DNA from: a virus
Taxonomy: Duplodnaviria; Heunggongvirae; Uroviricota; Caudoviricetes
DNA length: 42,273 nt
Virus record (IMG/VR): IMGVR_UViG_2908959467_000004
Strand: one strand, 5' to 3'
In this document: piece by piece, positions 1 to 40,207 of the stretch
How the letters are laid out: the number at the start of each line of letters is the position of its first letter
Position numbering within the stretch: the stretch's first letter is position 1
Made by a program: the position numbers and the translations under genes
The notes under the pieces: model-generated
What the model saw: the letters and a program-made list of their open reading frames with translations, nothing else
Databases searched by the model: none
What the model was told of the DNA's origin: nothing

Positions 1-267
1 ATGCGCAGAAAAGAGTCAAACGTTAGCAGTTTGCCGGAACTCACCAATTTTGAGGTAAGCTATTCTCTGGTTACCAATGAAGTTTACTTGTCTGCATCCT
101 TCACTGATAACATGGTCTGTATACCAAACTGGCCCTTACAAGAATTTCCGGATCAACTAATATGCATTTCTCGAGCAAAAGCTGTTGCCCTAATCGAAGA
201 GCTCCAGAAGACCATCAACTATATGGATGCAGGAATAGATCGAAGTTCAGGTAGCCTTCTCCAGTAG
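1..267 (+). CDS. hypothetical protein (low-GC cargo gene beyond the tail module)
   Basis: 88-aa ORF starting at window position 1; AT-rich; no recognisable motif. Confidence 0.3.
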   Translation: MRRKESNVSSLPELTNFEVSYSLVTNEVYLSASFTDNMVCIPNWPLQEFPDQLICISRAKAVALIEELQKTINYMDAGIDRSSGSLLQ

Positions 268-327
268 CTGACGAGTTTTATAATAATTTGATATATATAT
301 ATCGTTCAATATTAGCGAGTACTTATA

Positions 328-975
328 ATGAGTGAATTTAGTAATTTTTTAAATAGCATTCCTGGATGGTTATCCTCCTCCCTCACAGCTCTAGTTGGTA
401 CTCTTATTGGCGGATGGTTTACCCTAAAAGGAGTTACCCAACAAGCTAAGCTGTCTAAAGTAGAGACAGAAAGAGAATCCCTTGAATTGCAACTTTCAGT
501 ATTAAAAGGTGTTAAGGGAGAAATTTTCACCCTAATCAATTTATATAATAAAAGGATGAAAACACACATTGATAGTATCAAACCCGGACAGATGTTAATT
601 CTCACTTTCCCTGTAGGGGATGATAATTTCACATTCTATGAGCAAAATGCGAATGTCATTGCAAAACTAAATGATTCTGCCAGAGACTCAATAATTAATA
701 TCTACACATATTCACGGTCATTAATACAATCATTTAAAGGAAACAACAAACTCATTGAGGATTATGAAAAAATCCTTATTGGTATGGCTGACAATAACAA
801 AGATAAAACCATGTATAAGAGATTACATGATGAAAAAATAGATGTAATGGTAGATTATGCTCAAGGGATAAAAAATATTGATGAAGAACTAAGAGATGCA
901 GTCAATAAGGGATTCAACATTATCGACCAAGAAGTAAAGTCGCTACAAATGAAATTAAACAAATTAGCTTCATAG
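328..975 (+). CDS. hypothetical membrane-anchored protein (one N-terminal hydrophobic helix, then a Lys/Asp/Glu-rich soluble domain)
   Basis: 215-aa ORF; N-terminal segment WLSSSLTALVGTLIGGWF looks transmembrane; AT-rich codon usage unlike the flanking tail genes. Confidence 0.45.
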   Translation: MSEFSNFLNSIPGWLSSSLTALVGTLIGGWFTLKGVTQQAKLSKVETERESLELQLSVLKGVKGEIFTLINLYNKRMKTHIDSIKPGQMLILTFPVGDDNFTFYEQNANVIAKLNDSARDSIINIYTYSRSLIQSFKGNNKLIEDYEKILIGMADNNKDKTMYKRLHDEKIDVMVDYAQGIKNIDEELRDAVNKGFNIIDQEVKSLQMKLNKLAS

Positions 976-1059
976 AAATGCTCCACTCCCTGTTCAAGAT
1001 TTTTACAAGCTTATCAGCCAGCCGTGGCACGTTCTTGCATACGACGTGCCACGGTTTCA

Positions 1060-1188
1060 TTCATCTCCGACCGGAAACTTCTTATACAAAGTCGATACGC
1101 CAACATCATAGATGATCGCCATTTTCTGGCGAGAAACTCCTGATGCAATTTGTCGTCCAGCCTGCGCCCATTGCTCCGGCGTGAGAGT
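1060..1188 (-). pseudogene. remnant of a Gin/Pin/Hin-family DNA invertase (C-terminal HTH only)
   Basis: Minus-strand translation LTPEQWAQAGRQIASGVSRQKMAIIYDVGVSTLYKKFPVGDE-stop resembles the C-terminal DNA-binding domain of Gin/Hin invertases as I recall them; no start codon and no catalytic N-terminal domain. Confidence 0.6.
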
Positions 1189-1269
1189 AAGACAGTAAAC
1201 TGTAGAAAAATCTCATTAAACTTAATATAATAATAAGTTACAGAATTATCTTTACTGAATAATAGACAT

Positions 1270-1815
1270 ATGAATATTAGTGAACTTAAAAACTGTATAC
1301 ACTATGAAGTAATAGGTTATAAACGCCCTTTCTCCTGGCGAAAAGCAATTGTTCGCGCAATAAAACACAGAAGATTACGTTATTTATTTTGGTGGCGCGT
1401 AGCAAAATATCTTTTTGATAAAGGAGGATACCGGCGAAAGATTGCAGGAAAAATAGAACGCTTCATTCTTGATAAATACAATGTAACCGTTCCCTTAACT
1501 GTAAATATTGGTAAAGGGTTCGACATATCTTATCTTAATGGCGTTGTTATCGGTCACAAAGTTACAATAGGTGAAAATTGTTCAATTAAGCCTGGGGTAA
1601 CTATTGGACTTCGCGGTGAATTTAATGATATGGATATTGTCATAGGAAATAATGTAACCATTGGCTGTAACGCCACCATCCTTGGTGGCAAAGTGCATAT
1701 AGGGAATAATGTAAAAATAGGAGCTCATGCATTGGTACTGCATGACATTCCTGATGACTCCACATTCATTACTAAATTTCACTCTGAAATTATTTATAAC
1801 TCATCTCACACATAA
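1270..1815 (+). CDS. hexapeptide-repeat (left-handed beta-helix) O-acetyltransferase, CysE/WcaB-like
   Basis: 181 aa; imperfect hexapeptide repeats IGKGFDISYLNGVVIGHKVTIGENCSIKPGVTIG...IGNNVTIGCNATILGGKVHIGNNVKIGAHALV; low GC; convergent with the tail fiber assembly gene. Confidence 0.7.
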   Translation: MNISELKNCIHYEVIGYKRPFSWRKAIVRAIKHRRLRYLFWWRVAKYLFDKGGYRRKIAGKIERFILDKYNVTVPLTVNIGKGFDISYLNGVVIGHKVTIGENCSIKPGVTIGLRGEFNDMDIVIGNNVTIGCNATILGGKVHIGNNVKIGAHALVLHDIPDDSTFITKFHSEIIYNSSHT

Positions 1816-1825
1816 TTCCGTTTAA

Positions 1826-2404
1826 TCACAGCTCTGGCCATACGATATCCGGGGCTGTATTTATATCAATCCGACTCACTAATACCCGGTATTTTTTCCA
1901 GGAAGATAGCATCGAGATTTCCTCATCAGTTGCCATTTCAAAATTAACAGCATCCTGCAGAATTGTTATGTTATCAGTCGCTTCCTGGATTAATCTTGCC
2001 TTTTTCTCTTCCGCCTCCCGGATCCGGAACAGTTTTTCTGCTTCTGCATCTTTCACCCAAGCTGTGCCGTTCCACTTCTGAAACTCCCCATCCGGCGACA
2101 ACCAGGTGACATTTTCCGGTAATGGGCCAAGTTCAGAAATAAATAACGCGTCCCCTGATGCCACGTCATAAACTGTTTTACCCCGATGGTCTTCAACAAG
2201 ATGCCACGATGCCTCATCACTGTTGAAAACAGCCACGAAGCCAGCCGGAATATCTGGCGGTGCAATATCGGTACTGTTTGCTGGCAGACCTGTATGAGGC
2301 GGAATGTATGCGTCACCTTCACCAACAAATTCATTAGTTCCGGCCAGCAGATTATAAATTGTTATGGTCCGTGGTTGTTCACTCATTCTGAAATCCATGT
2401 TCAC
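1826..2404 (-). CDS. tail fiber assembly protein (Tfa/Mu U-like chaperone)
   Basis: 192 aa; sits at the end of the tail fiber region where a Tfa is expected; composition typical of Tfa proteins. Confidence 0.7.
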
Positions 2405-2406
2405 CT

Positions 2407-3309
2407 CTACTTAATATCAGAGACAGAATATTGTTTATTGAGCGTATGGGTGTGAGCACCAATAACGATGCTACTTCCGTGGCTATGTGCGCCAGAGATG
2501 ACATTACCTACGGGATTTTCTGGATTAATCCGGTGTATATGCGAACCAGGGCGAAACCGGTTATTAGCCTGATGTTGTATCAGTACATCATCAGCCTGAT
2601 GTTCAGGGTTAATACAGACCTGCCCGGAACGTGAGCAATACGTCCGATAATCGCCGCATCCAATATATTTAGTATCCGCATAACGGCAAACAGAATTACC
2701 CGGACAGTATGCATATGTGCCAAATACTGCCGACTGGCGGGATTGTGCGTATTCCCAGTTAATTGATTCTGTTTTTTTATTAAAGTTATCCCATGCCTGC
2801 TTCATCTGCCGGGCAACACTTTCAAACGGCACCTGACCACATCCGGCTCCCATTGCAGGGAATACCACCGTTTTTATTTTCCTGTCTGTCGTTGCGTGTT
2901 TATTGTGCTGAAAGATGGCAAGCAGAGCGGCCCAGGTTGCATTATATACAGCGTCTGTTCCGGCAATTGTCAGCGGAACACGCATTGTTGGCGCATGTAC
3001 CAGCCAGGGGTGATGATTATGCCCCGTTTCAATTACAAATGCAGAACCTACAGGCTGTTCGCCTAGATATTCACGAAGAATATGATTCTGAACGCGGGAC
3101 TGTAACTGAGTACCGAAGAATGCGGTAATGGCGGCATCAACGCCGCCATCCATCAGGCCGAAACTATTTGCCGCACTTACCATGCAGTCAAATTCTCTGA
3201 TTGTTTCAAATGGCTTTCCGACAATATTCACATTATCTGCGGTTGCAAATACCCGCTTAAATGCTTCAGCCATTTCTGTTACTGGTGCAGAAAGAATGAG
3301 CGTAATCAT
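2407..3309 (-). CDS. macro-domain protein with tail-fiber-like His-x-His C-terminal region
   Basis: 300 aa; N-terminal ~190 aa carry macro-domain signatures ([18 protein letters not shown]; [17 protein letters not shown]; [21 protein letters not shown]); C-terminus is Cys-rich and ends [19 protein letters not shown]; start overlaps the tail fiber stop (ATGA). Confidence 0.7.
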
Positions 3310-4421
3310 GCAAGCCTCACAATATAGTTAAATGCGATGTTTTTGACGGTGTTTTCCGCGTTACCAGCAGCGTTAACGGTGATGGTGTGTCCATGTGAGC
3401 CAATCGCAACCGAGTGCGTATGAGCACCAATACCCACAGTATGTGTATGCGCCCCAGCACTTGCTGCAGTACCTGATACTGAGTGGGTATGCGCGCCCGC
3501 AGAATTCGTTGCACCTAAGTGAGTTTGAGCAGAGTTCGACGAAGCTATTCTACCGGACCTAACGTTAGCATTATCCCCCTGAGATATCGGATGCGTATGT
3601 GCGCCTGCTGAATCTGCTGTTCCACTAACGCTATGGGTATGCGCACCAGTGTTATTCGTAGATTTAGTTCCATAATCAAACGATGATGTGGTTTTCGTAC
3701 CCAAATCCGTATTGGATGCGCTGGCGCTGTGGGTGTGCGATTTAATGCCATCCTGTTCCTGAGACAATACGGCTCGACCACTGGCTGGCTTGCCCTTAAT
3801 CGTCCAGCCACGCATATCAGGGATCACGCCTGACGGATAAGCAACTGCAAGTTTCGGGTATGCAGATTTGTCAAAAGTCTGCCCCTGCATCAGGGCATAG
3901 CCAGACGGAACGGTATCTGATGGCCACGGGATCGGGGCACCTACAGGAAAGGTCGAATTATTTTCCAAACCAAGATATTTAAGGACATCAGCAACAGAGC
4001 TTTTTGCCAAAATATCTCGTCCAACCTGTGTCAGGTCAGCCAAATTAGCGGTATCTTGATTGGTAAAATACGGTAATTTGTTTTCGGATGCTGAAAGATT
4101 AGCAAGTGCGGTAAGTATGGTATTAATTCTCTGATAGTTCTTATCTAATGCAGACGACATTTTTGCGATAAAGCCGGCCTGATCGCCATCGTCCTGTACA
4201 TCCAGTCCACTTTCATTTGCTGTATATTGTGCCATTGCAGATGCAATAAAGCTGGCCTGCCGAATAACCTTATTGACTTGCGCACTGGATGCTTTCCCTG
4301 CTGTAAATCCGGATAAAAGCGCAGGCAACGCTTCCCATTCCTCCTGCGACATAACATTGGCATTTTTACCCGTTGCGAATGCTTTAAAGTCATTTTTTGC
4401 CATCAGAGTAATACTCCCCAT
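3306..4421 (-). CDS. tail fiber protein (T4 gp37/Mu S-like tip with His-x-His repeats)
   Basis: 371 aa; C-terminal repeats [56 protein letters not shown]; last gene of the baseplate module. Confidence 0.8.
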
Positions 4422-5083
4422 GCACCTACATCAAAACCACTGATGAATTCGTTATCCATATCAAAACCAAAAAATTTTGAGCCTTCCGATGGGGCTTCCA
4501 CCGAAGGTGTTTCAATGCCACCCGCCCATACCCCGGCGGCTTTTACTGTGAGATACCCCTGTTTAATTGCCGCAATTAACTCACGCGATACATCTGAAAT
4601 ATCAGTATCAGGAAAGACCCAGACCGATATCGTCATGTCCTGGTTATCGACTATCTGCATTCGCAGCCCGGCTCCTGCTGTTGCCGCGTCAAGAATTGCC
4701 GGAAGCGAATCATTCCGTCCGTCCCAGTTATTAATCGCAGTCTTCGCTTTAAGAATGACACGATAAGTTTCATCGCTGAGATACATGTATCCTGAATCAG
4801 GATCGTATGGTCCCTGCCATACCCCCTGATCATACCCAAGCCCGTCGGTATCCCAGCTGAAATAGACACCTGAGATAGGCTGGCTGACAACACGGCTACG
4901 TCCGATCCACAATCCCAGAATGTCAAGTTGCACACCAACCGCAGAGTCAATATCAAATGCAGTAATCAGCCCTCTGGTGGCAGCCGCAACATCAATAAGC
5001 GGCCGGGTCATCAGATCAACATGTGCAAGAAATTTAGGTTTGGTGGCGTGGTAGTTCGTGATCAGTTCGGTGTATTTGCTCAT
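4403..5083 (-). CDS. baseplate/tail protein (Mu gp48 or P2 gpI-like)
   Basis: 226 aa; between baseplate J-like gene and tail fiber; overlapping stop/start coupling. Confidence 0.55.
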
Positions 5084-6279
5084 GACTCCACCGTTATAAC
5101 GATATTTTCCGGTGTACAGGACGCAGATTCGTTGTATCTGATATCAATGTTTGATGACGACAAAGCCCCCGGGGATTTCCCAATCGTCAGTTCCTGAATA
5201 TCGTAATAGCGTGCATTCCCGCCACTCACCACGCCAAGATTCGCCGGTGAGTAAATGCGACTTAAAAGGACCGAATCACCAATCATCAGACTATTGATAT
5301 AGTCGGAAATAGCCTGCTGGATCTGCTGCCCTATCTGTGAGGTATAACCCGTAAAAACTTTTAATTTAATCCGGGCATAAACAGGTACATCACTGGAACG
5401 CGAGAATTTGATTACATGGGGATTGCCGTATTTATCCGGAACCGTAACGGATGTTGTACCGTGAGTAGCTGTCCCCTGGCCTTTATTCCCTCTGATAGCC
5501 TGAGCAATATCCGTCACATCACCGCCATCCACAATTACAGCAACAGAGTGTGGCGGTAACCCGTTACCGTCCTCCGAACCAGTATCGTTTTCATAGAGTT
5601 TGTGGCGGGTTACACCGGTAACATTAGAAACAGCACCATCCAGTGCTTCAAATGGGGTAATTGATGGCAATGCAACACTTTGCGACTGGCGGATACGTAA
5701 CTCAGCATCAGTTTCTGCCGGAGAGCCAACAGTAGCCGCAGCAGGATTAGTTACCGAAACCCAGCCACGGGTTGGCGTATTAATTTCAGTGATAGTTCCA
5801 GCCAGCGCCGCCACTGCACCACTGACGGAACATGTTGCGGTCGCCATCACTGTACCATCCACGCCGACCACCACTGAAGCAGGCAAACGCCATATCACAT
5901 TATTACTGTCTTTCACGCTGCCATTAATGATGGTTGTTCCGGCAGTTCCTGTAAGAAGCAAATCAACCGTAGAGTTCGTCGCGCCTTTACGTGAAATACC
6001 ATTTATTTTCACGTTACAGGTCAGTGCAGCCCCATAGCCGGTTGCCGGTGAAAAACAGTTGTAGACAGTTATCGCCATATTATTGGCATCATGAATCGCC
6101 AGCGCCATCAGAGCCACCATCTGGCCGTCTTTGCTGTCCGGTTCGAGGTAGGCATCACTGCCATAAATCTGCTGAAAATAGCTAATCAGGGTGCTGAGTA
6201 TCGTCTGATAATCAGGCGCACTGATCCCCTCCGCGGTTACCTTTGCAGATAAACCGAGAGAATCAAGGTTCAGAGCCAT
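5080..6279 (-). CDS. baseplate J-like protein
   Basis: 399 aa; position and size match the baseplate J family in Mu/P2-like tail clusters. Confidence 0.65.
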   Translation of the reverse strand: MALNLDSLGLSAKVTAEGISAPDYQTILSTLISYFQQIYGSDAYLEPDSKDGQMVALMALAIHDANNMAITVYNCFSPATGYGAALTCNVKINGISRKGATNSTVDLLLTGTAGTTIINGSVKDSNNVIWRLPASVVVGVDGTVMATATCSVSGAVAALAGTITEINTPTRGWVSVTNPAAATVGSPAETDAELRIRQSQSVALPSITPFEALDGAVSNVTGVTRHKLYENDTGSEDGNGLPPHSVAVIVDGGDVTDIAQAIRGNKGQGTATHGTTSVTVPDKYGNPHVIKFSRSSDVPVYARIKLKVFTGYTSQIGQQIQQAISDYINSLMIGDSVLLSRIYSPANLGVVSGGNARYYDIQELTIGKSPGALSSSNIDIRYNESASCTPENIVITVES

Positions 6280-6632
6280 TACGCCTCCGATGTAACAGTC
6301 GTTATTCCATAGAGAGTGTCGATTTCAGCGGAAAACATGACACGTCGGGTCGTGGTATCCACCGTCGTATTGAAAGAGAGGATTGATTTAACGCCCCGCG
6401 TTTCCAGAATGCGTTTTCTGATCGCCAGGTTGTAAGTTTCCGGTTTTTGCCTGCCCAGCACGGACTGGATCCACGGAGTCCCCTCGGTGGTGTCGAGAAA
6501 CCATTGCCCATACCACAATTCGAATCGCGTTTTTACCGCCTGCGCCACGGCCTCCGGTGAGTTAATCAGCCAGGTGTCATCACCGCTGCCAAAGGTGTAA
6601 TCGCCATCGGCGTCTTCACGTCTGTATCGCAT
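6279..6632 (-). CDS. baseplate wedge protein (gpW/gp25-like)
   Basis: 117 aa; small baseplate protein immediately upstream of the J-like gene. Confidence 0.55.
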   Translation of the reverse strand: MRYRREDADGDYTFGSGDDTWLINSPEAVAQAVKTRFELWYGQWFLDTTEGTPWIQSVLGRQKPETYNLAIRKRILETRGVKSILSFNTTVDTTTRRVMFSAEIDTLYGITTVTSEA

Positions 6633-7384
6633 CAGTTTACCCCGTCGGTACTGCTTCCACCGCGCTGAACACCACCATGAGTGTGCGTATCATCGATTGG
6701 CTTGCCGTTAGCCTTCACGCTCCCCAAGAACTCAACAGCACCAGTGATTTTTGAAGCCACACCAGAAACCACAGACCCCACCATGCCCCCCATCCAGGTT
6801 AACAGGCCATGAATGGTTACTTTCTCAGAAAAATCAGCCAGAGGGGCAACCACATCAAGACCACCCGGAGCGACAATTTTAATTTTCCTGGTATCAGGAT
6901 TAAGCTCAAAATAGGTGCTGCCGTCGTCACTACGCAACTGTGTGGCACTGGTATTAATACCGCTAATCTTCCTCGCCTGCGACTGGGGACCGACAATACA
7001 AAACGCATCCGATAAATCATGCATTCTGTCATCGACCGGCTCCTGTATCCCACCGCTCTGCCACCAGAAATCAATACAACGATCGGCAAAAACGACAAGA
7101 CACTCATCCCCGGCTTTAACCGGAAAAGTCAACGTACAGCCTCCGCCGCGCGGAAATACCACTGGCACATCCACCAGCAACGGGTAATTTTTGGTAATGC
7201 GGTTACCGTCGTTATCCTTTTCAACCGAACGGATAGCTGGCTGCACAACCGCCGTCACCGCGTCGGGATCGAATGACTGAACAATGCCAGGCAAGGCGAC
7301 ACGGATCTGGTTCTTTGTTGTTTCCCGTTCAGATTTGAATGTTTCGGCAAGGTCGCCGCTGCGGGTCTGGTCAGATACTGCCAT
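6632..7384 (-). CDS. baseplate spike/assembly protein (gpV or Mu gp45-like)
   Basis: 250 aa; conserved order spike-W-J in the baseplate module. Confidence 0.5.
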   Translation of the reverse strand: MAVSDQTRSGDLAETFKSERETTKNQIRVALPGIVQSFDPDAVTAVVQPAIRSVEKDNDGNRITKNYPLLVDVPVVFPRGGGCTLTFPVKAGDECLVVFADRCIDFWWQSGGIQEPVDDRMHDLSDAFCIVGPQSQARKISGINTSATQLRSDDGSTYFELNPDTRKIKIVAPGGLDVVAPLADFSEKVTIHGLLTWMGGMVGSVVSGVASKITGAVEFLGSVKANGKPIDDTHTHGGVQRGGSSTDGVN

Positions 7385-38812: not shown

Positions 38813-40207
38813 ATGCCCAAAGTTTTCACGCCTCGCCCCTACCAAGATCTAATTATCAACCACGAAATCGACATTCACCGCTGCAACATCTGGGCAGGGA
38901 TGGGGATGGGTAAAACCGTAGCGACACTCACCACGCTGGAAGATCTTTTCATGGCGGGCTCAGAGACACAGCCCGCGCTGGTCCTCGCGCCCCTACGCGT
39001 TGCAGCAAGCACATGGCCGGATGAAGCGCTGAAATGGGGGCATCTGCGCAATATCGAGGTGCAGCCGATTGTTGGTAACGCCAAAGCGCGCTCTGCAGCG
39101 CTGGCGAACAGCAACGCGAGCGTGTTCACCATCAACTACGATAACCTTGTCTGGCTGGTTGAGGAATTGGGAGAACGATGGCCGTTCGGTACTGTCATTC
39201 CAGATGAAAGCACCCGGCTAAAATCCTTCCGGCTGCGAGGTGGTGGTAAGCGCGCGGCGGCGCTGGGCAAAGTGGCGCATAAGTATGTCCAGCGCTGGAT
39301 AAATCTCACCGGTACGCCAGCACCGAACGGCCTGGTAGATTTGTGGGGACAATTGTGGTTTGTGGACCAGGGGCAACGTCTCGGGCGCACTTACGGCGCG
39401 TTTACCTCACGCTGGTTCAACTCGATACAGTTTCCGGGGCAGAGCTGGACCAAACTGGAGCCGTTTGCTCACTCACAGGCTGAAATACAGCGAGCGTTAG
39501 CCGATGTGACCCTCTCGCTGGATGCGGCCGACTGGTTCGATATCAAAGACCCCATCCATAACGTAATCCGCGTGGATATGCCGCCGAAGGCCCGTCAGCA
39601 GTATCGTGAAATGGAAAAGGAAATGTTCCTCGAGCTGAATGGCGAAGGCATCGAAGCACCGAACGCCGCGGCAAAGACACTGAAATGTCTGCAAATCGCC
39701 AGTGGCGCAGTATACACAGACGACACCGGAAGTTGGTCAGAACTGCATGACACCAAACTACAAGCGCTGGACAGCATACTGACCGAAGCAGCTGGCGCAC
39801 CTGTGCTGGTTGCTTATCACTGGAAACACGATCTTGAACGCTTGCTTAAAGCATTCCCTCGCGGTCGTCACCTCGACCAGGATCCACAGACACTGCGCGA
39901 CTGGAATTCCGGAAAGATTCCTGTTCTCTTTGCACACCCAGCCAGCGCGGGCCACGGCCTGAACATGCAGGACGGCGGAAACATACTGGTGTTTTTCTCG
40001 CACTGGTGGGATCTGGAGCAGTACCAACAAATTATCGAACGCATCGGGCCAACCCGGCAGATTCAGGCCGGACACAACCGCCCGGTGTTCATTCACCACA
40101 TTATCGCCGCCGACACTATGGACGAAATGGTGATGGAGCGGCGCAACTCAAAACGAACAGTGCAGGACATCCTGCTCGATGCCATGAAAAAGAGAGGTAT
40201 AGCATGA
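38813..40207 (+). CDS. SNF2/DEAD-like helicase
   Basis: 464 aa; PYQ motif, Walker A GMGKT, DExx box IPDEST; C-terminal helicase domain. Confidence 0.8.
   Translation: MPKVFTPRPYQDLIINHEIDIHRCNIWAGMGMGKTVATLTTLEDLFMAGSETQPALVLAPLRVAASTWPDEALKWGHLRNIEVQPIVGNAKARSAALANSNASVFTINYDNLVWLVEELGERWPFGTVIPDESTRLKSFRLRGGGKRAAALGKVAHKYVQRWINLTGTPAPNGLVDLWGQLWFVDQGQRLGRTYGAFTSRWFNSIQFPGQSWTKLEPFAHSQAEIQRALADVTLSLDAADWFDIKDPIHNVIRVDMPPKARQQYREMEKEMFLELNGEGIEAPNAAAKTLKCLQIASGAVYTDDTGSWSELHDTKLQALDSILTEAAGAPVLVAYHWKHDLERLLKAFPRGRHLDQDPQTLRDWNSGKIPVLFAHPASAGHGLNMQDGGNILVFFSHWWDLEQYQQIIERIGPTRQIQAGHNRPVFIHHIIAADTMDEMVMERRNSKRTVQDILLDAMKKRGIA

Follow-up and report, generated by a model that had tools for sequence, protein, structure and literature searches.

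Among the invertible tail-fibre switches of the Din family are the P segment of e14 with its invertase PinE, the G segment of Mu with Gin and the C segment of P1 with Cin. Acetyltransferase genes are known from prophages as well. The published description of phage JL22 notes an acetyltransferase gene beside that of the tail fibre assembly protein (Tfa) and states that its role is unknown (PMC9603915), and NeuO of prophage CUS-3 O-acetylates the K1 capsule (polysialic acid) and raises phage resistance (PMC3046976, PMC13001214). Here we analyse a 42,273-nucleotide DNA from a virus of the Caudoviricetes (IMG/VR record IMGVR_UViG_2908959467_000004; hereafter the window), in which a fragment of a Pin-type invertase gene (the stub), a low-GC acetyltransferase gene and a lambda-type Tfa gene lie side by side near the left end. 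We consider it very probable, taking all lines of evidence together, that the locus comprises a dead stub, a lost switch, a deletion scar that travels with the fibre module, and a live acetyltransferase gene carried as cargo. The features on which this reading depends are as follows.

1057–1185, minus strand: remnant of a Din-family (Pin/Gin/Cin/Hin) serine DNA invertase gene, codons 143–184 plus stop, helix-turn-helix (HTH) domain; pseudogene (Pfam, phmmer, tblastn)
1022–1054, minus strand: GC-rich hairpin directly after the pin stop; likely terminator and widely shared 'linker' (RNA fold, sequence matches)
1186–1269, plus strand: junction, then the stretch upstream of the acetyltransferase gene, which holds a promoter-like site (consensus match)
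1270–1815, plus strand: 181-aa acetyltransferase, left-handed beta-helix with a serine-acetyltransferase-like fold (phrog_2154); low-GC cargo gene (moron) (Pfam, PHROG, structural model)

An invertase remnant at the site of a former fibre switch

What remains in the stub is the 3′ end of a dead DNA invertase gene of the pin type. Its coding part (1185–1060, minus strand) specifies LTPEQWAQAGRQIASGVSRQKMAIIYDVGVSTLYKKFPVGDE, with 1060–1062 as the last sense codon and the stop at 1057–1059. The Pfam resolvase domain HTH_7 matches this sequence with 36 bits against a cut-off of 23.8 (E 7.7e-9), and phmmer comparison with PDB sequences aligned it to residues 143–181 of the 193-residue Gin (3uj3, E 1.3e-9) and to the HTH DNA-binding domain of Hin (1hcr, E 1.8e-5). 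When the intact 184-aa PinE of a sister prophage (see below) was used as a tblastn query, residues 143–184 fell on positions 1185–1060 at 90.5% identity (E 4e-21); relative to the PinE of sister prophage L005, 4 of the 42 residues are changed. In RefSeq genomes of near-identical E. coli prophages the feature is already annotated as a partial pseudogene, PGAP naming it 'helix-turn-helix domain-containing protein; incomplete; missing N-terminus'.

Nothing upstream could complete the gene. Translated from 1209 on the minus strand, the frame reads FSTVYCLT and then, across the junction, LTPEQWAQAGRQIASGVSRQKMAIIYDVGVSTLYKKFPVGDE and the stop. There is no usable start codon, the earliest in-frame start being an internal ATG (MAIIY...) that leaves only 21 codons, and 8 codons before the junction the frame is interrupted by two stops. 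Searching the window by tblastn with full-length PinE revealed neither an N-terminal resolvase catalytic domain with its active-site serine nor an intact invertase open reading frame (ORF). No significant second invertase was seen either, since the sole extra alignment (39608–39676) has an E value of 0.21, which is at chance level. The original prediction, made from the letters alone, had described a remnant of about 42 codons of a Gin/Pin/Hin-type invertase, lacking start and catalytic domain and beginning at about 1188. This description was correct to within 3 nt, and the similarity of the remnant to the C-terminal parts of Gin, Hin and PinE is significant.

Recombinational enhancers lie in the 5′ part of the invertase gene, as established for gin, cin and hin. 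Because the 5′ three-quarters of the invertase gene are deleted here, the enhancer must be gone too, a conclusion drawn from the deletion alone with no direct scan. The crossover sites were searched for directly. Across the whole window there were 0 matches to the 26-mer pix site with up to 8 mismatches and 0 to a degenerate crossover-site consensus with up to 4; as positive controls, the same two scans recovered both sites in the sister prophages L005 and L006 and in the P1-like phage JL22. The exact 19-mer (up to 3 mismatches) and the core AAACCNNGGTTT (up to 1 mismatch) gave nothing in or near the locus, and a general search of 900–4500 found no long inverted repeats. A search for residual gix-like inverted repeats near 1190 and within 1820–3310 had been proposed; these scans show no gix-like site anywhere in the window. 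Since start codon, catalytic domain and crossover sites are all missing, the stub cannot act, and the fibre cannot invert even if an invertase is supplied in trans.

What stood here previously is evident from related prophages. The window backbone is that of a SEN34-like myovirus and matches induced E. coli phages, vB_EcoM-689R2 among them, at 96.8% identity; in E. coli genomes its left end adjoins yfhH/tadA/mltF (as in L001, 98.8% identical). Two sister prophages, L005 and L006, have the same backbone at the same chromosomal site, adjoining yfhH, and differ in the fibre end. Pairwise BLAST shows that they share window positions 1–1185 and 4243–7000 at 96–98% identity and nothing between, which places the breakpoints at 1185 and 4243. 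Between the shared blocks, the sisters carry a two-cassette invertible segment consisting of pinE, pix sites, fibre and Tfa genes, and inverted Tfa′ and Sv′ cassettes. The pinE gene is full-length (184 aa) in L005 and frameshifted in L006. L006 also has the fibre, Tfa, inverted Tfa′ and inverted Sv′, and its segment is bounded by inverted 26-bp sites, one inside the fibre gene (TTCTCCCAAACCAAGGTTTTCGAGAG) and its partner just upstream of pin (CTTCTCCCAAACCAACGTTTATGAAAA).

Because these same-site prophages carry pin, pix sites and two cassettes at the corresponding position, an invertible host-range switch once occupied 1186–4242. The stub thus marks the site of a former two-cassette switch (fibre-pix-Sv-Tfa / Tfa′-Sv′-pix-pin) that is now a fixed single-specificity module. 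In order, this module contains the distal fibre, an optional macro-domain gene, Tfa and then the low-GC acetyltransferase gene in opposite orientation. The proposal that an ancestral invertible fibre segment stood here is borne out both by the direct comparison with L005 and L006 and by the absence of crossover sites from the window.

A mobile acetyltransferase cassette

The ORF at 1270–1815 matches Pfam Hexapep (E 1.1e-13), and its stop (1813–1815) lies 10 nt from the stop of the convergent Tfa gene. Its coding sequence is 35.5% GC and the cassette as a whole (1186–1825) 33.6%, compared to 46–47% for the Tfa and fibre genes; the remainder of the phage has 51.6%. An AT-rich hexapeptide acetyltransferase convergent with Tfa had been predicted, and this is what we find. 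Upstream lies a promoter-like site, with a –35 hexamer TAGAAA (1203–1208), a 17-nt spacer and a –10 hexamer TATAAT (1226–1231), which agrees with the consensus at 10 of 12 positions and is the best match in 1–2600.

Closely related cassettes occur without the stub. From 1196–1202 onward, the cassette is found at 84–89% DNA identity in P1-like plasmids (L003, NZ_JBLWKF010000003.1) and in the P2-like phage vB_EcoM-613R2 (L007). The promoter hexamers and their spacing are kept in these copies (TAGAAA/TATAAT in the P1-like plasmid, TAGAAA/TACAAT in 613R2). Comparing the window gene with them gave ratios of non-synonymous to synonymous substitution rates (dN/dS) of 0.07–0.09, with dS of ∼0.65–0.7. 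A ratio of ∼0.08 indicates that the acetyltransferase gene is maintained by purifying selection, whereas the stub decays. Other phages have the same Tfa and no cassette, the lambdoid homology stopping at 1831–1884, just beyond the Tfa stop. The gene thus has the marks of a moron, namely deviant GC content, a conserved promoter-like site and presence or absence among related phages. Judging from these sequence features, it is probably a live, self-contained cargo gene, transcribed in the lysogen from its own predicted promoter. No tandem repeats of the kind that underlie phase variation of neuO were detected between 900 and 2000.

In the P1-like plasmid, the cassette occupies the usual place of cin and the C segment. 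We saw no pin or cin remnant beside the cassette in this plasmid, in 613R2, in Hafnia phage yong2, in phiNP or in ESSI2; a small minus-strand ORF upstream of the yong2 acetyltransferase gene is unrelated. One further observation on the plasmid concerns ∼0.9 kb of GC-rich non-coding sequence between a lydA-type holin gene and the cassette (∼5100–5990, beginning GTGTGCGCCC...), which by eye only resembles the 5′ part of a group II intron.

More distant homologues form the same convergent acetyltransferase/Tfa pair, at 37–52% protein identity, in Citrobacter phage phiNP, Hafnia phage yong2 and prophages of E. coli, Salmonella, Buttiauxella and Gilliamella. The description of phiNP lists the gene and assigns no function to it. 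In Buttiauxella (L028, metagenome-assembled genome DAMALH010000006.1, 7971–14814), the same SEN34-like backbone has an intact pin, both cassettes of an invertible fibre segment and, beyond pin in the end cargo, an acetyltransferase homologue of 43% identity. This arrangement shows that the family recurs as cargo at this prophage end in other genera. Elsewhere its surroundings vary. Pfam tallies of upstream and downstream neighbours (72–78 loci) were heterogeneous, with no recurring polysaccharide-synthesis partner, and the neighbours in 80 species-representative loci are otherwise unrelated host genes. With no obligatory association with Tfa or any other gene, the family is a self-sufficient, single-gene cargo.

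Among the roles considered, the most likely is lysogenic conversion through acetylation of a small acceptor such as a sugar or nucleotide-sugar, perhaps an envelope precursor; we put it forward tentatively and with low confidence, by analogy with prophage-borne beta-helix acetyltransferases such as the conversion enzyme NeuO. The question has some practical weight, as the gene is conserved and mobile, and its carriers include E. coli prophages as well as P1-like plasmids that bear resistance genes; should the enzyme modify the cell envelope, phage susceptibility and serotyping would be affected. An anti-defence or counter-immunity factor, acetylating a small molecule or protein of the host or of a rival phage, seems unlikely. 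In favour of it, the gene stands alone, is low in GC and horizontally mobile, and turns up in many unrelated settings, and the adjoining macro-domain gene belongs to a fold often tied to ADP-ribose conflict systems. However, PADLOC returned no match for the acetyltransferase (or for the two left-hand ORFs described below), no conserved partner gene accompanies it, and the macro-domain gene is an independent indel that is missing from the closest relatives. That said, nothing we computed separates anti-defence from surface modification. Nor do our results speak for or against the surface-polysaccharide O-acetyltransferase suggested originally.

Distribution and proposed spread of the stub–cassette junction

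Homology to intact pin stops at 1185, and homology to the pin-less cassettes begins at 1196–1202; there is no convincing microhomology at 1185/1186. The same junction, identical base for base, is present in lambdoid prophages near prfC/dinI (L002 and L004, the latter with stfR and lom). A 131-nt probe spanning the junction had hits in 63 of 5426 complete E. coli genomes, each time once and on the chromosome, and the 63 copies fall into three identity bands that reach down to ∼94%. With respect to diagnostic substitutions in the stub, the window sides with L002 and L004 against the pin genes of the sisters. Left of ∼1015, that is, in and beyond the hairpin, the window follows its SEN34-like sisters, and rightwards it follows the lambdoid lineage. 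Homology to L005 and L006 resumes at 4243 with 97.5–97.8% identity. The presence of the junction in both SEN34-like and lambdoid prophages, and in 63 genomes, indicates that the underlying event predates the window prophage and that the junction was imported with the fibre module.

The hairpin at 1022–1054 folds with –25.6 kcal/mol (z –3.5). Its 40-nt core (region 1015–1056) recurs at 97.5% identity at the ends of many Stx1 and Stx2 phages, and also in HK97, HK106, phiP27 and Rac (Rac-SA53), with no invertase nearby. As the hairpin coincides with the point at which the window switches between relatives, it may be a shared terminator or recombination linker. Rfam gave only a sub-threshold CssrB fragment for this hairpin.

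Could the invertase instead have been disrupted in place, through a local deletion and insertion of foreign DNA at the resident fibre locus of the window prophage? The sisters would fit such an event, in that L005 with its full-length pinE and L006 with a frameshifted one occupy this very site and the flanks remain 96–98% identical up to the breakpoints. Yet the nucleotide-identical junction in L002 and L004 lies at a different chromosomal site, the stub substitutions match the lineage of these lambdoid prophages and not the sister pin, the junctions in the 63 genomes diverge by up to ∼6%, and the distal fibre and Tfa differ from those of the sister prophages as well. Disruption in place is thus quite improbable.

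A model for the arrangement that preceded the scar is offered by JL22 (ON018986.2). In this phage, a homologue termed sacF (∼37% protein identity to the window acetyltransferase) is flanked by U′ and Tfa at the centre of an invertible C segment (674–6137) that appears to be whole, with an intact cin, 602-bp inverted repeats and cix cores at 679–690 and 6121–6132. Separately, we note that the JL22 segment combines one P1-type and one lambda-type fibre/Tfa cassette, and hence constitutes a hybrid switch between two fibre families.

We propose, as the simplest history, that an invertible segment once carried the acetyltransferase cassette at its centre, downstream of Tfa, which is the arrangement of the JL22 homologue. 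A single illegitimate deletion or fusion event, running from the promoter region of the acetyltransferase into pin codon 142, would then have removed the Tfa′/Sv′ cassette, the outer crossover site and pin codons 1–142. Subsequently, the junction may have spread among lambdoid and SEN34-like prophages by homologous recombination, the crossovers falling on the left in the conserved pin-3′/hairpin region (∼1015–1060) and on the right where the fibre gene is conserved at its 5′ end (∼4243). Because the JL22 homologue lies inside an intact invertible segment, deletion explains the stub better than does cargo DNA replacing the switch. The original prediction had suggested that the segment was deleted and replaced by cargo DNA. 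Its loss is evident. The replaced block is larger than the cargo gene, however, as it spans 1186–4242 and consists of the distal five-sixths of the fibre gene, Tfa, the macro-domain gene and the cargo gene; and the JL22 arrangement favours deletion over replacement.

On this history of deletion and spread, the stub is a clean, datable scar of a two-state host-range switch given up for a fixed fibre, and the fibre module, scar included, has passed between unrelated SEN34-like and lambdoid backbones. It should be useful for prophage annotation and for the reconstruction of module exchange.

Identity of the enzyme and comparison with known systems

The acetyltransferase matches phrog_2154 over its full length (residues 1–180 against profile positions 4–184 of 185; E 7.9e-78), a PHROG annotated as of unknown function. 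An AlphaFold (AF2) model built on 58 homologues, with a pLDDT of 91.4, consists of four N-terminal helices followed by a left-handed beta-helix. When this model was compared to the PDB with Foldseek, the top 50 fold matches were all serine acetyltransferases (SATs), with TMq values of 0.65–0.77. The protein most likely forms a trimeric acetyl-CoA-dependent transferase with the SAT fold.

In near-identical E. coli prophages, RefSeq/PGAP names the ORF 'serine acetyltransferase'. Were this right, the gene would encode a genuine CysE-type serine O-acetyltransferase, an auxiliary metabolic gene boosting O-acetylserine and cysteine for lysogen or phage growth. The best PDB matches, by sequence as well as by fold, are indeed all SATs, and the best NCBIfam models are EpsC and CysE. 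But the scores are far under the curated cut-offs: 85.4 bits versus 150 for EpsC, 77.6 versus 210.65 for cysE TIGR01172 and 52.7 versus 397 for PRK11132. Pfam reports only Hexapep-type domains and no SATase_N domain, and in the alignment the 181-aa protein ends before the C-terminal extension of CysE.

The catalytic and substrate-binding residues of SATs are well established for CysE. In HMMER alignments to the soybean and gonococcal SAT structures (4n69 and 6wye), the catalytic 'DH' corresponds to S87-Y88 and the serine-binding 'DRHP' to 'DMDI'. The family alignment gives the same correspondences, and the RDPA motif is missing throughout it. Since curated cut-offs, SATase_N, and the catalytic and serine-binding residues are all missed, the label is unjustified; the public annotation is almost certainly wrong, and a CysE-type role for the ORF is very improbable. 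WcaB is no better a match, with 59.1 bits against a cut-off of 194.65 and 59.6 against 196. The earlier description of the protein as 'CysE/WcaB-like' thus holds at the level of the fold, given the TM-scores to SATs, and fails at that of the family.

Within the family, Tyr occupies the position of the SAT catalytic His in the window subclade (members 52–90% identical), while a sister subclade keeps 'AH'; both are full-length. A more far-reaching view would be that phrog_2154 represents an uncharacterised class of receptor- or envelope-modifying conversion enzymes, repeatedly placed tail-to-tail with lambda-type Tfa and travelling with fibre specificity, in which the Tyr subclade, under strong purifying selection (dN/dS ∼0.08) in spite of the lost His, would use a catalytic arrangement or acceptor different from that of known SAT-fold enzymes. 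We think this rather doubtful.

It is highly implausible that the stub has been kept for a use of its own, whether encoding a small DNA-binding peptide or carrying a terminator or linker that insulates the acetyltransferase promoter: stub and hairpin are retained in 63 genomes, and the hairpin is strongly folded and widely conserved, but the stub has no start codon and follows in-frame stops, its copies in L002 and L004 carry an internal stop, 4 of its 42 residues differ from L005 PinE, the P1-like and P2-like cassettes do without any stub, and keeping the hairpin requires no coding remnant.

Several points weigh against the overall reading of a dead stub, a lost switch, a travelling scar and a live cargo gene. 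Tfa is the downstream neighbour in just 5 of 78 cases and an invertase lies within 8 kb in 1 of 80 species-representative loci, that of Buttiauxella L028; the family usually resides away from fibres and invertases, and the rarity of such neighbours makes a functional link between acetyltransferase and fibre weak. This subtype of acetyltransferase was not found together with an intact pin and an alternative cassette, either in the E. coli hits inspected or in the 80 species-representative loci. The proposed deletion intermediate is modelled on a 37%-identical homologue in a different phage, JL22. The replacement of the catalytic His by Tyr in the window subclade means that catalytic competence stays predicted. 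Finally, the promoter is a consensus match only, and no terminator for the cassette was detected, as the cassette runs head-on into the 3′ end of Tfa.

The remaining features of the locus are these.

1826–2404, minus strand: tail fibre assembly protein Tfa, lambda type (Caudo_TAP, 2.4e-38; phrog_105)
2407–3309, minus strand: macro-domain protein, 300 aa, between the fibre gene and Tfa (Pfam Macro, 1.1e-18)
3306–4242, minus strand: distal five-sixths of the tail fibre gene (collar, GAHxH repeats); imported, non-invertible (Collar and Phage_fibre repeat domains)
4243–4421, minus strand: backbone-specific fibre N-terminus, first ∼59 codons; right-hand recombination boundary (homology to L005/L006)
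328–975, plus strand: 215-aa low-GC (33%) ORF, beyond the pin stub (no Pfam, NCBIfam, PHROG or PADLOC match)
1–267, plus strand: 88-aa low-GC ORF at the prophage end (phrog_17793, function unknown)

The whole tail fibre gene (3306–4421) encodes 371 aa; at higher coordinates, also on the minus strand, lie genes for a DUF2612 wedge protein and a baseplate J protein. Across 3306–4242 it has no homology to L005 or L006. The macro-domain gene is a clean 906-bp indel, in that 2399–3304 are precisely missing from the otherwise 97–99% identical L001. It fills the gap between the fibre stop, which it overlaps by ATGA, and the Tfa start. Its product bears the GAHxH repeat motif of the fibre tip at the C-terminus, and PHROG 14717 contains the macro protein fused to fibre sequence. 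Gifsy-1, SEN4/5 and phage Chuche have homologues next to their side tail fibres, and in jumbo phages homologues go under the name 'tail protein'. A fibre-associated macro enzyme would merit a study of its own.

The Rfam entry for a predicted small RNA of E. coli, IS009 (RF02111), aligned over its full length at 1857–2055 on the minus strand, inside the 3′ half of the Tfa gene, with 94.9 bits (E 1.5e-21) against a gathering score of 117. Given its location, the match probably reflects homology to a prophage tfa gene and not a separate RNA. At the other end, the 215-aa ORF is also annotated beside pinE in the sister prophages, and because homology to the sisters spans the whole of 1–1185, both end ORFs are older cargo of the backbone.

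Taken as a whole, the case is a new and well-documented instance of known processes (Din invertase decay, modular fibre exchange and moron carriage) and represents expected biology. It resembles the e14, Mu and P1 switches in that the position and orientation of the stub relative to fibre and Tfa follow the canonical layout, which is intact in L005, L006 and JL22. Unlike those switches, the window keeps HTH coding only, having lost the catalytic domain, the start, both 26-bp sites and the alternative cassette. A closely similar described arrangement is JL22 region 3 (cin - Sv′ - U′ - sacF - tfa - stf), where a hexapeptide acetyltransferase is likewise convergent with lambda-type Tfa by a side tail fibre; unlike the window, JL22 retains cin, the 602-bp inverted repeats and the second cassette, and its segment is presumably functional.

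As to the gene itself, low GC content, a promoter-like site of its own, presence or absence among phages with the same Tfa, and purifying selection are all shared with phage morons, although no terminator was detected for the cassette, and expression in the lysogen is here predicted only. With CysE and short EpsC-type SATs, the protein shares a helical subdomain and beta-helix (TM ∼0.75, 25–29% identity), but it differs from them in lacking SATase_N, the catalytic Asp-His and the serine-binding Arg-His and in scoring below every cut-off. With respect to NeuO, the shared sequence is limited to the generic hexapeptide part (polysialic-acid O-acetyltransferase 2wlc, E 0.0011), and the window gene has a SAT-type helical N-domain and no phase-variable tandem repeat. 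Nevertheless, both are prophage-borne, stand-alone acetyltransferases of the left-handed beta-helix type, and NeuO is the best experimentally grounded analogue of the enzyme encoded here.

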